Virus record (IMG/VR): IMGVR_UViG_3300040801_001158
Location: 73,359 to 137,358 of that record
Length of the DNA: 64,000 nucleotides
Origin: a virus
Taxonomy: Duplodnaviria; Heunggongvirae; Uroviricota; Caudoviricetes
Strand: one strand, 5' to 3'
Positions 15,899 through 57,401 of this stretch are shown one piece after another; position 1 is the stretch's first letter; the number at the start of each line of letters is the position of its first letter. The translations under genes were made by a program, and so were the position numbers. The notes beneath the pieces are model-generated. The model was not told the DNA's origin and ran no database searches. It saw only the letters and a list, made by a program, of their open reading frames with translations.

Positions 15899-15945
15899 TT
15901 TTTTTATAAATATTACATAATAATTTTTATAATCAAAGGAATAAG

Positions 15946-47447: not shown

Positions 47448-47500
47448 TTAGTCTTCTCCTTGTTGAGTAAATTTTACTTTATTGTTATTATTACTTAATT

Positions 47501-52204: not shown

Positions 52205-54103
52205 TTAAGAAATTGAACCGACGATTTCGTCAAATTCTATTCCGCTACGCGTTGCAACAAATGTTAGTTCTATTACATTGATTGAACGCGCAGGCTTAAT
52301 AAAGATATTAGCTCTAAACTTATTCTGATCTACGATAACAGGTGTGTTAACTGTTGCGTCCGATACAACACGGAAATCAATTATTCCACGGCGTCCTTGA
52401 ATATCTCTTAAGAACGGGTCAACTATATTTTTAAACTGAGTTTGTGTAAAATCATCATTGAGATCAAATAATAGGTTTTGCGCGGCGTTTGCAATTGATT
52501 TTTCTACAGCAATAAATAGTCTACGAACATTTATACGATCAAACGCGCTTTGTACACCCAATCCTGTTTTATCGCCGAATAATATAATACCTTGACCAAT
52601 TTGTGAAACTACTGGATTGATATCTGAACTGTATAATTGGTCTCTTTGTGCTTTATTCGGGTTAAACGCAAGTTTAACTACGTTTTTAATAACACCTTTT
52701 CTAAAACCTGCTGGTGATTCGTAAGGTTCAACTCTAGATGCAAGTCCAGCCATGTCACCATTCAGTGGTACGAAACGATAAACATCATTATACTTGTCGT
52801 ATCTGTATTTATAACCGCTATCCATAAACCAATACGACGATGATTGAATTTTATTACGATATGCAATTACATTTTTAAGTTTTGAGTTGGTTCTCAACTC
52901 GTCAACAACCGATTCTTTTGATGGGGATAAAAACGCGACTACATCCTTTCTCTTTTCAGCAATGTTTGATACTATATAGTTTGCAAGATTACCATTATCA
53001 TCGCCTTTACCTTGAAGGATAAAAGAAATGTCAATTTCATTTGCGTTTTCAAAAGTATCATACGCTAGCGCCAATGGGCCGAGTGTTGTTGTTGCTTCAC
53101 TTGTGCCATCTGTACCTAATGTTAAAGTTTCATATCCAGATGAAGTTGCTTCAAAATTAATTGTATTTGCAACATTAACCCAACTTGAACCGTTGTTAAT
53201 AACATCAACGTAATAGTTATTTCTACCATTAGTTAATGTTGAACCTTGAGTAGTTGATAAATTTTCGTATAATTCAACAATACTGCCAGCTTGACCAGAA
53301 AGTTTACCATTATTGTCAATTACAGCAATATGATAAGTTCCTTCAACAGGTGCAGTACCAAACGATGAGGCATAAATCCATTTTGTTGTGAACTTAAGAG
53401 CATTTAAATTTGTCTCTGATAGCGTATATCTTGTGGCGAGTGTAATCTCGTATTTATACGCAACAATATCCAATTCAAGCGCGGCTGGGTTACCTTCAAA
53501 ATCAATAGCAGTTTCTACTGCGCTATTCATTTTTAATGACTGGTACCCAACAGAATCGTTGCCGATTTCTAAAATATCACCTGCGTTTATATTATTAATT
53601 TTGTTCAATGCATCAACTTCAAATTCTATGTTAAATGAGTTAAAATCAATTGTCTGTGTGTTTGCTGTTATTATCGAATTCGCTGGTATGTCACCAACTT
53701 CTACGACAGTATGTTCAAAATTAATGTTATTTGAATACGCAACGTCAATTGAGTTGCCCAATTCACCTGGGTATTTACCTTCAAATGATCCTGCTTCTAC
53801 TATAACGTTATTTGCTACAATATCACCTGATGCTTTTCTTGCGCCATTATCGGCGCGTGCTACATATAATGCATTTGAATATGAAAGATAATCGGCAGCA
53901 ACAAAGAATGTTTCATACGTATTATCTGTTGGCGCGCCAAAACGGCCAACTAGTTCATTTTCTGAAGAGATTAGAATAGGTTCTTCGGTAGGACCCCATC
54001 TAAAAACTCCTGCAATGGCCGCTGGTGGTGTAGCTATAGCAGGTACGCCTGCTGTGGCATCCACTTCACGAACAATTACTGAAGGACTTACGGAAAAAGC
54101 CAT
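52205..54103 (-). CDS. tail sheath protein (gp18-like), 632 aa
   Basis: Position and size (T4 gp18 is 659 aa). Confidence 0.55.
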   Translation of the reverse strand: MAFSVSPSVIVREVDATAGVPAIATPPAAIAGVFRWGPTEEPILISSENELVGRFGAPTDNTYETFFVAADYLSYSNALYVARADNGARKASGDIVANNVIVEAGSFEGKYPGELGNSIDVAYSNNINFEHTVVEVGDIPANSIITANTQTIDFNSFNIEFEVDALNKINNINAGDILEIGNDSVGYQSLKMNSAVETAIDFEGNPAALELDIVAYKYEITLATRYTLSETNLNALKFTTKWIYASSFGTAPVEGTYHIAVIDNNGKLSGQAGSIVELYENLSTTQGSTLTNGRNNYYVDVINNGSSWVNVANTINFEATSSGYETLTLGTDGTSEATTTLGPLALAYDTFENANEIDISFILQGKGDDNGNLANYIVSNIAEKRKDVVAFLSPSKESVVDELRTNSKLKNVIAYRNKIQSSSYWFMDSGYKYRYDKYNDVYRFVPLNGDMAGLASRVEPYESPAGFRKGVIKNVVKLAFNPNKAQRDQLYSSDINPVVSQIGQGIILFGDKTGLGVQSAFDRINVRRLFIAVEKSIANAAQNLLFDLNDDFTQTQFKNIVDPFLRDIQGRRGIIDFRVVSDATVNTPVIVDQNKFRANIFIKPARSINVIELTFVATRSGIEFDEIVGSIS

Positions 54104-54152
54104 GTTTGTTCTCCTTTAACTTTTGTCATTTTTTTGTTTTTGTATCATTTGT

Positions 54153-54160
54153 TATTTATA
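54153..54160 (-). promoter_or_regulatory. late promoter TATAAATA upstream of the sheath gene
   Basis: Plus-strand tatttata. Confidence 0.45.
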
Positions 54161-54172
54161 ATATTATGACAC

Positions 54173-55345
54173 TTAGAAAATCCATTCACTCTTGTCGTTT
54201 GCGACTGTTGTAAATCCTTCAGAGTCAATATCATCGCCATCACCAATATCTATAAACCCAAATGGCAATAAATCTTCTTCTATTTGTTCTTCTGTTTTTT
54301 CTCTTAACATCATCATCGTATTTATATCAGTTAAATCTTTAAAATATCCTTGGTCTGTAAACCAAGCAAATAATACTAAATTCATTACCAAGTCGTCATG
54401 CGCACCAGATTCAGCCTCATAAGAATTTCCTTTTTTAGAAAATCTAGTTAATTCTTGTATTGTATGGAAGTCATCTAATAGTAGCTGGTCTTGCTCTATT
54501 AACATTTTTAATATTGAACACCCAATCGACTTTACACTTTTTGTTGTTCTTATGCCATTATCAACTCTTTTACCGAACCCACTCGATATTCGTTTACCTG
54601 ACCTGCCAGCATTTTCGGTGTATAACATATTCTCATAACCAAAATCCATTGTAAGTACATCAGATACTTGTTCACCAATGTCGTTTATTTCAACCAAGCA
54701 ATATGCCTCAGCGTACATCGTAGCAACCCTAAATATAACAGATGCAAAATCTACTGGCCCAATATAATTATCTCTAAATGTACATACTTGCTTATATGGC
54801 ATTTGTGTTATATCAATTACAGTAAAGGTTGAATAATCAAGTCCTTTACCACGAGACACATCAACTACCATTACATATGTTCTTGAAAGATCAGGTCTTT
54901 CGTATTGACACAACCCATCAACTTCATGCAATGGTCTTGAATATGTTAACTCTTTTAATTTAGATCCATTAATAAGTGTACCAGAACTGCCAATAAATTG
55001 ACAGTTGTGCGAAACCATTCCATTTGTTAAATATTTATTTCCATTACTAACTTCTAGTGCATCGTATACATAATCAGTTTCATTTTTATTAATATACAAG
55101 TATGAAACTTCGCTAAAGCCATTTTCAGTTTTAATTCTATCGCCTACCTGCAATTTTTGTGCATGTGCAAATCCGTAATCAGTTTCTAGTTCGTGATCTA
55201 AAGAACATTCCAAAGTTTGTTTATTTTCTAGCGATAGAGTGACTATCCCAGTTGTTAGTGTCTTTCTCACGCCATGAAAATCTGACCAACCCTCGGGTGT
55301 TAATATTTCATATTTACTCTGCATTTGCAAGTTCTGATACTCCAT
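54173..55345 (-). CDS. terminase large subunit, C-terminal part. An intein C-fragment (about 114 aa ending ...GMVSHN) is followed at 55003 by the Cys+1 extein (nuclease domain).
   Basis: HN/C splice junction; block-B-like LECSLDHELET. The extein VVDVSRGKGLDYSTF and AHDD motifs are terminase-nuclease-like. Confidence 0.55.
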   Translation of the reverse strand: MEYQNLQMQSKYEILTPEGWSDFHGVRKTLTTGIVTLSLENKQTLECSLDHELETDYGFAHAQKLQVGDRIKTENGFSEVSYLYINKNETDYVYDALEVSNGNKYLTNGMVSHNCQFIGSSGTLINGSKLKELTYSRPLHEVDGLCQYERPDLSRTYVMVVDVSRGKGLDYSTFTVIDITQMPYKQVCTFRDNYIGPVDFASVIFRVATMYAEAYCLVEINDIGEQVSDVLTMDFGYENMLYTENAGRSGKRISSGFGKRVDNGIRTTKSVKSIGCSILKMLIEQDQLLLDDFHTIQELTRFSKKGNSYEAESGAHDDLVMNLVLFAWFTDQGYFKDLTDINTMMMLREKTEEQIEEDLLPFGFIDIGDGDDIDSEGFTTVANDKSEWIF

Positions 55346-56018
55346 TTTCTAAAATTCTTCTAATTGCGACTGTAGTAACATTATATTTTTTCGAGAAAAA
55401 TTCAGAATATAATTTCTTTTTATTAATATATTTGCCATTAGGTGATTTCAATTCTTCAATTTTAACTTTACCAACTTTATGCTTATCCATTTTTTTAACA
55501 AACTGTGAGATGAATTCATTATCGAATATTAATGAGTCTTCCTCAAATTTCTTTATAATATCTTTAGCTTCATCTAAAGGTATTTTCCTTCCACCCCAAC
55601 TTTTACCTTTACGCAATTTTGACCATTTTTTTCTTGTTTCTTCAGAAAAATTTGCATTCTTAGACCACGTGTTTTTCATTTTTTTTGACCAATGATTATC
55701 TCTCATTTTTTGTTTTGATTCTTCAGAGTACTTAAATCCTTTAGTGTTGAAGTTAGGAGCTAAATGATTACCTTTTCCATTTATACTTTCATTGAGGCCG
55801 TTGTAAAACGTATCATATTTGGCTATAAATATTTCTTCTAAATCTTCTGCTTCTGAATAAGTATCGCAATATTTTAGTATTTCAATTTTTTCTATACCAA
55901 TTTCAAATCTTTTAGATTTTTTATGTACGCGCATTCTTTTGTTATATTCACAAGTAATGCCAATATATTGTTGTCCGTCCAGTCTAGTGATCATGTATAT
56001 TACATTTTTACTCATCAC
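55314..56018 (-). CDS. GIY-YIG homing endonuclease (234 aa), free-standing between the two terminase fragments
   Basis: N-terminal YMITRLDGQQYIGIT...RMRVHK (GIY...YIG...R). Confidence 0.65.
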   Translation of the reverse strand: MMSKNVIYMITRLDGQQYIGITCEYNKRMRVHKKSKRFEIGIEKIEILKYCDTYSEAEDLEEIFIAKYDTFYNGLNESINGKGNHLAPNFNTKGFKYSEESKQKMRDNHWSKKMKNTWSKNANFSEETRKKWSKLRKGKSWGGRKIPLDEAKDIIKKFEEDSLIFDNEFISQFVKKMDKHKVGKVKIEELKSPNGKYINKKKLYSEFFSKKYNVTTVAIRRILENGVSELANAE

Positions 56019-56068
56019 AATCTCCTTAGTTTATTTTATTTATAAAACCAAAGAATTCACACTCATGC

Positions 56069-56959
56069 TTAAAATTCGTTGTATAGACTTTCCATTGTGA
56101 TTTGTTTTATTTCACCTGTATCTTTATCTCTTACGGTAACTATTGCATTTCCTTTTACGCATGCGTACTCTTGTGCAAATTTTTCTTCGTCGAAATCAAG
56201 AGCTTCAAGTGTTTCATTCTTCCATGCTTCTCCACGCCCAGGAACATCATCCCATCGAACTTCTACAAACTCATAACCGTTTGTCTTTTCTTTTGCGCCT
56301 TTACAAGTCTTATGAAAATGATTTAAACCGTTGGGTGTAGAAGTCATGAGAAGTTTTGTAGATTCGCCTGATGATATCGTTGGATATACAGATGCAAAAA
56401 ATTCATCGTAGCCTTCGATAAATGCAACCTCGTCTAGATATAGGAATGAGATTGACTTACCACGAATAGCAGATGAAGAAGTTGTACCAGCATATATTTT
56501 ACAACCGTTCTCTAAAGCAATACTACCTTTGTTCCATTCTTCAATACCTTGCTGCATCCATTTTGGCAATGCTTCATATGCAAGTTGAATACGGCCTAAA
56601 ACTTCTCGAGCTGCATCACCCTTATTTGCAAGAATAGCGGCCGTTTTATGCTCGTTGAATAAAACGTAGTGTAATATGATTGCGACAGCGGTTGTCGTTT
56701 TACCTGCCTGTCTTGCCGTTAATACTGCAACACGTCGACTATTAAATATTTTCTCTGATATTTCTTCTTGGTAAGGGTACATATTAAAAGGAATTAATCC
56801 TTTATCAACATGCACTATTTTAATATAATTCCTGGCAAAATAAACAGGATCTTTCATACATTTCATATACTCTTTTAATTGCTCTGGAGTAAATTCAATT
56901 TCTTCGTTTATTTTCTTTAGATTATTATTACCAAGATACCCACTAATCACTAGTTTCAC
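56069..56959 (-). CDS. terminase large subunit, N-terminal part (ATPase domain, Walker A LTARQAGKTT). It ends in a 30-aa intein N-fragment starting at Cys267 (56161..56072).
   Basis: Walker A resembles T4 gp17 SRQLGKT. The C-terminal CVKGNAIVTVRDKDTGEIKQI is like intein block A. Confidence 0.6.
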   Translation of the reverse strand: MKLVISGYLGNNNLKKINEEIEFTPEQLKEYMKCMKDPVYFARNYIKIVHVDKGLIPFNMYPYQEEISEKIFNSRRVAVLTARQAGKTTTAVAIILHYVLFNEHKTAAILANKGDAAREVLGRIQLAYEALPKWMQQGIEEWNKGSIALENGCKIYAGTTSSSAIRGKSISFLYLDEVAFIEGYDEFFASVYPTISSGESTKLLMTSTPNGLNHFHKTCKGAKEKTNGYEFVEVRWDDVPGRGEAWKNETLEALDFDEEKFAQEYACVKGNAIVTVRDKDTGEIKQITMESLYNEF

Positions 56960-57401
56960 CTTTAATCATTTTCAATAAATCAGATGTTGATACTATTAAA
57001 TTATTATTTGTAACATTGGATTCTTTCTTAGGGCCCTTTACATCATCAATGGCGTATTTCTTTTTACTTGACATTTCGACAAAATCTTTATTTGCATCTA
57101 ATAGAGTTTTCATAAGTGTAGAGGCAACCTCAAAAGCTCGTGGGGATTCTGACTGTTTTGCAAGTTCCATCATTTCTTCTAATGCGTTATCGCCATGAGT
57201 AATAATATTTTTTATGTTATTTCTCGCCTGTTCGATGTCGTCAATCATTTCTTGACTTTCGGGATTTATTATAGCTAAATCAGTTGATGTATTTGCGACT
57301 TCCTCTGTTTCTTGAACTGTAGGAAGTTGCACATTATCTTCAACTTCTGCCAAAGGCCTTAATCCAAGTGTTGATGCTATTATGTCATCTTTTTTCTTCA
57401 T
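56943..57401 (-). CDS. terminase small subunit (gp16-like), 152 aa
   Basis: Position immediately upstream of the large terminase; size (T4 gp16 is 164 aa). Confidence 0.45.
   Translation of the reverse strand: MKKKDDIIASTLGLRPLAEVEDNVQLPTVQETEEVANTSTDLAIINPESQEMIDDIEQARNNIKNIITHGDNALEEMMELAKQSESPRAFEVASTLMKTLLDANKDFVEMSSKKKYAIDDVKGPKKESNVTNNNLIVSTSDLLKMIKGETSD

Follow-up and report, generated by a model that had tools for sequence, protein, structure and literature searches.

A T4-type large-terminase gene split by a free-standing GIY-YIG homing endonuclease gene, with a probable trans-splicing intein at the break

The present analysis concerns the large-terminase (TerL) locus of an uncultured T4-like phage (Caudoviricetes). 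The window, i.e. the whole stretch of DNA that was analysed, comprises 64,000 nt of IMG/VR record IMGVR_UViG_3300040801_001158 (positions 73,359-137,358), and a JGI metagenome contig from sample 3300040781 matches it. Three open reading frames (ORFs) are arranged head-to-tail at the locus on the minus strand, on which all locus features given below reside: ORF1 (56959..56069), ORF2 (56015..55314) and ORF3 (55345..54173). ORF1 encodes the TerL ATPase domain followed by a short tail, ORF2 encodes a GIY-YIG homing endonuclease, and ORF3 encodes a 114-aa head followed by the TerL nuclease domain. The tail and the head are the candidate N- and C-terminal fragments of a split intein, designated IntN and IntC, and the flanking terminase parts are designated N-extein and C-extein.

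ORF1 codes for 296 aa, carries the Walker A motif LTARQAGKTT and matches Pfam Terminase_6N (E 3.7e-26) as well as PHROG terminase families. Its start is uncertain, with GTG 56959 and GTG 56950 (the JGI call) as the two candidates. The C-terminal end reads ...EKFAQEYA|CVKGNAIVTVRDKDTGEIKQITMESLYNEF*, the bar marking the border between the N-extein (aa 1-266; 56162..56959) and the 30-aa IntN (56072..56161), which is followed by the stop codon at 56069-56071. ORF3 (390 aa) starts with IntC (aa 1-114; 55004..55345), and the C-extein makes up the remainder (aa 115-390; 54173..55003, including the stop codon). The latter opens with the +1 Cys (CQFIGSSGTL...) and accounts for the match of ORF3 to Pfam Terminase_6C (E 9e-8, residues 161-321). 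A sequence-only reading of this DNA had claimed that TerL is split into two ORFs by a GIY-YIG homing endonuclease gene (HEG), and the three ORFs with their Pfam and PHROG matches bear this out.

To describe the break at the level of the host protein, the exteins were joined (ORF1 residues 1-266 plus ORF3 residues 115-390), yielding a sequence of 542 aa. This sequence aligned with T4 gp17 (PDB 3ezk) with E 3.5e-102, and neither insertion nor deletion occurred at the junction, which reads FAQEYA-CQFIGSSGTLINGSKL in the alignment. The N-extein covered gp17 residues 85-353, and the C-extein aligned with gp17 residues 354-572 and with the RB49 nuclease domain (3c6a). According to the alignment register, the insertion point corresponds to gp17 T353|A354. 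The crystallised gp17 ATPase construct 2o0h ends ~7 residues past the junction and the RB49 nuclease construct 3c6a starts just after it, which places the insertion at the interdomain hinge between ATPase and nuclease. The sequence-only reading had stated that the ATPase ORF does not end at a domain boundary. This applies to the ORF as a whole, whose intein tail overruns the boundary, but not to its extein part, which stops at the boundary, the gp17 ATPase construct extending 7 residues further.

Thousands of TerL proteins were retrieved when the spliced sequence was used as a query, and the best 120 of them were aligned. They are single uninterrupted proteins of 528-544 aa with 75-87% identity to the spliced sequence, and 0 gap columns fell between residues 266 and 267. 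These 120 intein-less proteins lack counterparts of the ORF1 tail (30 aa) and of the ORF3 head (114 aa), and removal of the in-frame insertion restores a host protein colinear with them as well as with gp17. The colinearity of the concatenated exteins and the foreign nature of the ORF1 tail, both proposed beforehand, are thereby upheld. The +1 Cys is native in 102/120 of the intein-less homologues, the consensus being QEY[CE]C[QET]FLGSSGTL. The predicted tryptic junction peptide of the spliced TerL (~62 kDa) would be FAQEYACQFIGSSGTLINGSK, and QEYECQFVGSSGTL represents the junction region of an intein-less TerL allele of the P0151 type.

The two fragments carry the hallmarks of an intein. Cys1, the block A nucleophile (Cys267 of ORF1), follows right after ...QEYA, while IntC contains CSLDH (block B) and ends GMVSHN|CQF. 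In the numbering of the fused fragments the catalytic residues are S78-L-D-H81 in block B, VYD125 in block F and SH143-N144 in block G, followed by the +1 residue C145. S78-L-D-H81 aligns with the T-x-x-H of relatives and of the Mtu RecA intein, and the His is invariant. Fragment lengths and motifs (block A, S/TxxH, GMVSHN|C) agree exactly with the earlier description.

For a family alignment, IntN plus IntC of the window were combined with 18 contiguous mini-inteins (133-149 aa) present at the hinge site in other phages. The fragments are colinear with these 18 same-site mini-inteins, and the break lies in a loop of variable length. Among the 19 sequences, C1 (19/19), H81, D125 and N144 are invariant, and T46, H143 and the +1 Cys are nearly so; H143 and the +1 Cys are kept in at least 90% of the members. 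A profile built from the 18 foreign mini-inteins alone was then compared with the 572 ORFs of the window. It matched two of them, the ORF1 tail being covered by profile positions 1-28 (E 1.5e-5) and the ORF3 head by positions 28-142 (E 9.8e-37). Matches to complementary halves of one profile in just 2/572 ORFs are far beyond chance.

Comparison with the PDB led to the same protein family. IntC matched 6dsl_B ("Consensus engineered intein CatC") with E 9e-9 and, more weakly, the inteins of RecA, DnaX and PolB16, whose T-x-x-H lines up with block B of IntC. The best PDB match of IntN was 6dsl_A (CatN), in register from the extein onward (EYACVKGNAIVTVRDKDTGEIKQITMESLYN vs EFEALSGDTMIEILDD-DGIIQKISMEDLYQ). 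The family profile matched CatC (4.3e-26), gp41-1 (1.1e-14) and VidaL (2.3e-14), and all other significant PDB matches of this profile were inteins or intein-like (BIL) HINT domains. Thus, intein homology had been proposed for both ORFs and was found on both. Pfam Intein_splicing was matched by 17/19 family members (best E 1.4e-8), and TIGR01443 (intein_Cterm) scored 16.1 bits on fused IntN+IntC (cut-off 15.6) and 14.5 bits on ORF3 alone.

The fused intein was also modelled by AlphaFold2 (AF2). The model based on the 19-sequence alignment reached pLDDT 94.7 and pTM 0.87, with ~69 for residues 31-40 around the break; from the single sequence, pLDDT was 40.7. Strands at residues 7-12 and 18-22 precede a helix at 23-33 in the model, and the break falls at 30/31. 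In a Foldseek search of the PDB with the model, the top 50 matches were all inteins or intein-like HINT domains; the best was VidaL (TM 0.82, rmsd 1.9 A), and Cat (6dsl_B) showed 32% identity in the structural alignment. Fused IntN+IntC is therefore predicted to adopt the HINT fold of a class 1 intein. According to the model, IntN would end inside or just after helix alpha1, matching the "S2" atypical split position of AceL-TerL and GOS-TerL.

While a word-indexed search with IntC returned only 2 proteins, an exhaustive phmmer search against 1.84 billion cluster representatives yielded 1077 matches with E<=1e-3, of which 285 reached E<=1e-10. Among the best 150 matches, at least 51 start with IntC and run directly into the nuclease domain, i.e. 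they show the same split at the same site. Another 45 of these 150 start with IntC and continue into the remaining ATPase domain, reflecting splits at the P-loop or Walker-B sites, and the rest include contiguous mini-inteins. The intein family occupies three sites in TerL, namely P-loop (GK|TT or |SGKS), Walker-B (DE|CAFI) and hinge (QEYx|CxFLGS), examples being P0003, P0005, P0009 and P0024. Some metagenomic TerLs carry two or three intein copies, split and contiguous ones mixed; P0003 (939 aa), for instance, has an IntC at its start and two more contiguous inteins.

Mobility of the element was assessed by counting its states in the 80 most similar IMG/VR loci, which are referred to by L numbers. 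The full cassette is present in 3/80 loci, L009, L010 and the distant L055, and in L009 and L010, which stem from different samples than the window, all three ORFs are likewise intact. Two further loci (L011, L019; 3681-4315) contain the split intein with the HEG deleted. In L011 and L019, ~240 nt separate IntN and IntC, including a 17-aa remnant ORF, and GAATTC...TATAAATA is kept. L056 (1/80), a truncated contig, comprises IntC and C-extein only. Empty-site alleles are found in ~70/80 loci, and these relatives devoid of endonuclease and intein encode a contiguous TerL of the predicted spliced length; the sequence-only reading had proposed a comparison of this kind. HEG presence is thus sporadic among syntenic relatives. 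In the metagenomic locus L008 (985-2854), the GIY-YIG gene is broken into ORFs of 52 and 106 aa, and IntC/C-extein is frameshifted into ORFs of 153 and 228 aa; either the cassette is decaying or the assembly was error-prone. Altogether, this marine T4-like clade holds the empty site, the contiguous mini-intein, the split intein with HEG and the split intein with the HEG deleted, which may represent all stages in the life cycle of intein and HEG.

The HEG itself (55314..56015) encodes 233 aa when read from ATG 56015, which is located 6 nt after AAGGAG and is a likelier start than the mechanically assigned GTG 56018. The GIY-YIG domain (PF01541) was recognised over HEG residues 5-73 with 32.2 bits (cut-off 22.6), and the protein matches phrog_314 "homing endonuclease" (E 8e-9). 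Pfam gave no match past residue 73. The C-terminal half is lysine-rich and presumably binds DNA; by eye, the HEG protein contains two NUMOD3-like S-E-E-[ST]-[KR]-x-K-[MW] repeats (FKYSEESKQKMRD and NFSEETRKKWSKLRKG). In IMG/VR, full-length (233-aa) matches were confined to L009/L010, five more loci being matched over fragments of 15-34 aa, and the window and L009 proteins are 85% identical. The only relative among cultured phages, with 27% identity, occupies the same TerL intein position in Vibrio phage VP-1.

The 53-nt spacer between the ORF1 stop codon and the HEG (56016..56068), as read from the sequence, holds putative HEG control elements: a T4-type late promoter motif, TATAAATA, at 56037..56044 (21 nt upstream of the HEG ATG), the Shine-Dalgarno sequence AAGGAG at 56022-56027, and an RNA hairpin with a 10-bp stem at 56023..56054, detected by local folding in comparison with shuffled sequences. 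The 3' arm of the hairpin pairs AAGGA of the Shine-Dalgarno sequence, and the late promoter motif is located in the loop. For the local 53-nt fold, z was -2.26, with 3/200 shuffles as stable. Counterparts of the hairpin are present in L009 (z -3.0) and in L055 (z -2.7), where the sequence differs, while folding of L008 and L011, in which the HEG is decayed or gone, yielded no extra hairpin stability over shuffles.

The motif TATAAATA occurs 19 times in the window versus 11 expected copies, and 18/19 share the orientation of the surrounding gene block. Of the 12 copies on the minus strand, seven fall between genes at a distance of 19-53 nt from the next gene start, one of them preceding the sheath gene. 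This placement fits T4-type late promoters across the structural module. Intergenic motifs are located at 47500, 48470, 49185, 49916, 54153, 56037 and 59683 on the minus strand and at 15905 and 32400 on the plus strand. No copy is present directly upstream of the small terminase gene or of ORF1. Before the HEG, the motif is kept in L009 and L055, and it is also kept in HEG-less L011. At the other end of the HEG, its 3' end overlaps the 5' end of ORF3 by 32 nt (55314..55345). The overlap is also found in L009 and suggests translational coupling or restart. A 101-nt fold around the ORF3 start was not significant (z +1.3). The IntC ORF has its own ATG, which is conserved in L009, L011 and other loci.

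Selection was estimated as the ratio of non-synonymous to synonymous substitution rates (dN/dS; Nei-Gojobori) for the window versus L009. The ratios were 0.064 for the N-extein, 0.107 for IntN, 0.161 for the HEG, 0.101 for IntC and 0.070 for the C-extein, i.e. every part of the locus is under purifying selection in this pair. Synonymous divergence varied along the locus: dS was 0.54 for IntN and HEG, 1.10 for IntC and 1.6-1.8 (near saturation) for the exteins. DNA identity to L009 peaks at 88-95% over 55981..55622, with 95% in the catalytic half of the GIY-YIG gene, versus ~75-80% in the flanks. The low dS of the IntN-HEG core is suggestive, but only suggestive, of a later lateral transfer of the cassette core or of ongoing homing.

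Related split terminases are not confined to metagenomes. The sequence-only reading had placed this arrangement mainly among metagenomic fractured genes, which does not hold: it is also carried by cultured phages, e.g. Serratia phage 92A1 and Vibrio phage VP-1. By tblastn, IntC-like sequences were detected in 231 cultured-phage records, and split forms were verified in four of them. In Serratia phage 92A1 (L006, OR088902, 1654-4616), the hinge site harbours the three-ORF arrangement of the window, its insertion point being shifted upstream by one residue. In Vibrio phage VP-1 (L003, MH363700, 822-4164), a 738-aa "terminase large subunit" contains a contiguous P-loop mini-intein; at the hinge site, IntN continues in frame and without a stop into a GIY-YIG domain homologous to the window HEG, and IntC plus nuclease form a separate ORF. 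The VP-1 arrangement looks like an intermediate between a free-standing and an intein-embedded HEG. The Walker-B site is split in E. coli phage kaaroe (L004, MN850574, 1769-4880), which carries a fused TnsA/EndoI-like nuclease, and in Campylobacter phage NCTC12673 (L005, GU296433, 3472-4855), where the region is unannotated. In NCTC12673, the half with IntC follows a neck gene and does not adjoin the N-terminal half. Matches in Ackermannviridae are contiguous inteins with ~25% identity, some of which are already annotated as inteins. The split terminases of 92A1, kaaroe and NCTC12673 are labelled "hypothetical protein" or lack annotation, which is a warning for annotation in general; TerL-based phylogenies and genome-completeness checks will mis-handle split terminases.

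The best cultured relatives of the window TerL itself are phages of the Sinorhizobium phiM12 group (61% identity), in which TerL is uninterrupted at the hinge position. In phiN3 and phiM12 (L001, L002; 3399-5632), annotation assigns the N-terminal ~195 aa of TerL to a separate upstream ORF, gp17.2, which overlaps the main TerL ORF. The window TerL begins at about the equivalent of gp17 residue 85, and there is no extra ORF of the gp17.2 type. Gene order around the locus is that of T4, with gp13-, gp14- and gp15-like genes, small terminase, split TerL, tail sheath, tail tube and portal. Megablast of the locus against 50,697 phage records produced no match, indicating that there is no close cultured relative at the DNA level. 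A second TerL, another intein or a second GIY-YIG copy was not found in the 64-kb window.

Taken together, the data make it very probable that the HEG-fractured terminase is rejoined by protein trans-splicing. A class 1 mini-intein would have resided at the ATPase/nuclease hinge of a T4-type TerL before a GIY-YIG HEG invaded its variable loop after the first helix. As a result, two polypeptides would be made, one consisting of the ATPase domain and the 30-aa IntN and the other of the 114-aa IntC and the nuclease domain. The short IntN is expected to dock into the near-complete IntC and thereby to complete the HINT fold, whereupon Cys1, the S-x-x-H of block B, Asp125, His143-Asn144 and the +1 Cys would catalyse trans-splicing. 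A 542-aa TerL free of any scar would result, joined at ...QEYA-CQFIGSSGTL... The HEG may be expressed from its own T4-type late promoter, and the hairpin may mask the HEG ribosome-binding site (RBS) on read-through transcripts. Transcripts that initiate at the internal late promoter would lack the 5' arm of the hairpin, allowing translation of the HEG and supplying the message for IntC-nuclease; the same promoter, together with the 32-nt overlap, would thus feed the downstream half of the terminase. Our proposal for the hairpin is patterned on Aeh1 mobE, for which Dassa et al. (PMC2677866) refer to a model of RBS masking. During co-infection, the HEG presumably cuts intein-less or HEG-less TerL alleles, and repair would copy the cassette. 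Splicing of this particular pair, the functions of promoter and hairpin, and homing are thus what we infer from the comparisons made above.

The retention of an apparently complete splicing apparatus is also what speaks against the most serious competitor, namely that the two TerL halves are separate subunits that assemble non-covalently, held in contact by the intein fragments or by the natural interface of ATPase and nuclease, and are never joined by a peptide bond, as is the case for the HEG-split NrdA of Aeh1. The break coincides with the flexible hinge of gp17, whose two domains were crystallised separately (2o0h, 3c6a), and genes split by a HEG can be functional without an intein (Dassa et al. 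2009, PMC2677866). Moreover, AceL-TerL is slow and of low affinity (PMC11766414). However, all catalytic residues are kept and are invariant or nearly so in the family, and both intein halves have dN/dS ~0.1; such conservation of splicing chemistry is not expected if the fragments had a mere docking role. Since, in addition, close homologues do splice (PMC11766414, PMC13014065), we regard purely non-covalent assembly as quite unlikely. An RNA-level solution was considered as well, in which the HEG resides in a self-splicing group I or II intron, stop and start codons are intronic, and RNA splicing restores a contiguous mRNA that includes the mini-intein. GIY-YIG endonucleases are indeed common in phage group I introns, and terminase transcripts are RNA-spliced in ICP1 phages (PMC10448857). 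Yet a permissive Rfam scan of 53800-57400 (E up to 10) retrieved no intron family, but three unrelated matches at chance level. The HEG is preceded by 53 nt and followed by a 32-nt overlap, leaving no room for a ribozyme core. In addition, the IntC ORF has its own conserved ATG (L009, L011 and others), and at least 51 of the best 150 cluster representatives are separate IntC-first proteins. With neither an Rfam intron model nor non-coding room, the intron was rejected, and we consider it next to impossible.

Finally, the locus could be decaying or mis-assembled, i.e. represent a pseudogenised TerL in a defective phage or an artefact of assembly or frameshifting. The source is a metagenomic contig, and the related L008 has a fragmented HEG and a frameshifted C-extein, but the identical ORF3 is present on two contigs, and no ORF is disrupted in L009 or L010, where purifying selection is strong and the 32-nt overlap recurs. 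Together with the same layout in Serratia phage 92A1 and Vibrio phage VP-1, which are cultured and viable, this renders decay or artefact highly improbable. Trans-splicing remains the preferred explanation, and the following observations have to be weighed against it. The evidence on the ORF1/ORF3 pair itself is computational, and the AF2 model was built on IntN and IntC fused artificially. In block B, a Ser takes the place of the Thr found in most relatives. The PDB match of IntN alone is weak (E 0.3, 36-aa query), as the fragment is short. Pfam Intein_splicing (PF14890; 16.6-22.1 bits versus a cut-off of 35.8, with 16.6 bits on the separate ORFs) and TIGR01445 (18.4 bits versus 24.5, on the fused construct) stayed below threshold; these curated models fall short on single sequences owing to divergence and the split, and given the profile and structural results we did not count them against an intein. 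In a 91-nt fold around the HEG start the hairpin signal is diluted (z -0.67), and the ORF3 start lacks a convincing Shine-Dalgarno sequence. The lower dS of the HEG could reflect sequence constraint instead of recent transfer. Lastly, the search for a second TerL extends over the 64 kb of the genome that are visible, and an intact copy might in principle be present elsewhere.

Beyond mere tolerance of a parasite's scar, the split might act as a timing device or conditional checkpoint for packaging, which we consider rather unlikely. In that scenario, the ATPase half would be transcribed with the upstream operon of neck genes and small terminase, and the nuclease half would additionally be transcribed from the HEG late promoter. 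Holo-terminase would form only once both halves have accumulated and the low-affinity fragments have spliced, possibly depending on redox state or temperature. Independent of this, the window provides an atypical TerL split intein complete and in its native context, whereas most earlier knowledge of the family came from engineered constructs and incomplete metagenomic loci. As this family already serves as a protein-engineering tool, the divergent natural pair of 30-aa IntN and 114-aa IntC may be of use for protein-labelling toolkits. The occurrence of empty, contiguous, split-with-HEG and split HEG-less alleles in one clade would allow a direct test of the gene-breaking model of 2009.

The fractured-gene paper by Dassa, London, Stoddard, Schueler-Furman & Pietrokovski appeared in 2009 (NAR 37:2560). 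It defined "fractured genes" and described spacers of 27-51 nt, putative T4 late promoters, hairpins and overlaps of 6-69 bp (PMC2677866). Like these genes, the window locus has N-extein-IntN, a free-standing HEG (GIY-YIG here, GIY-YIG or Vsr-like there) and IntC-C-extein on the same strand, a short spacer with T4 late promoter and hairpin before the HEG (53 nt versus 27-51 nt), and a HEG 3' end that overlaps the start of IntC. The paper also reported a gp17-like terminase "fractured at an unusual point", with a 122-aa IntC containing all motifs except N1 (Dassa et al. 2009, PMC2677866). The split point between blocks A and B was therefore correctly called atypical by the sequence-only reading, but it is not new; it is also what defines the AceL-TerL, GOS-TerL and Cat inteins, which later emerged from the same family and in which a short IntN (15-37 aa) is combined with a long IntC carrying blocks B, F and G. 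Unlike the Lake Gatun terminase locus of that study, which is a partial metagenomic assembly, the window contains both halves, the HEG and ~60 kb of context.

The nearest experimental counterparts of the window intein are AceL-TerL, GOS-TerL and Cat, with which it has the T4-type TerL host, the S2 split and the Cys1 plus Cys+1 chemistry in common. They are reportedly described in the original work of Thiel et al. 2014, Bachmann & Mootz 2015 and Stevens et al. 2018. Trans-splicing has been demonstrated experimentally for AceL-TerL (25-aa IntN), GOS-TerL (37 aa) and Cat (30-aa IntN, 104-aa IntC) (PMC11766414; PMC13014065), the S2 split site after helix alpha1 has been assigned to AceL-TerL and GOS-TerL (PMC13014065), and AceL-TerL has been described as a slow intein of low affinity (PMC11766414). 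Fragment sizes are similar, with 30 aa for the window IntN versus 25-37 aa and 114 aa for its IntC versus 104 aa in Cat. The insertion motif is likewise comparable: CatN has the native N-extein EFE, aligned with EYA, and CatC ends SH(N>A)|CE, versus QEYA| and SHN|CQF in the window. In contrast to Cat, the window allele is divergent (~32% identical) and is embedded in a complete native locus with intact HEG and control elements. The closest solved folds, VidaL (PDB 6VGV) and gp41-1 (6QAZ), both derive from phage-derived metagenomic data and differ in the split: VidaL is split after strand beta2 with a 16-aa IntN (S1 site), and gp41-1 is canonically split and resides in a helicase.

With the intein-less HEG splits Aeh1 nrdA/mobE and Aeromonas phage 25 gp43, the window locus shares the free-standing HEG in an essential T4-like gene, the hairpin predicted to mask the HEG RBS and the overlap of the HEG with the downstream gene. 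However, the products of Aeh1 nrdA and phage 25 gp43 assemble non-covalently, whereas the window intein would offer covalent repair. Layout, atypical split point and control features of the locus are thus already known, and the window intein is, by its sequence, a new divergent member of the AceL-TerL/GOS-TerL/Cat family.

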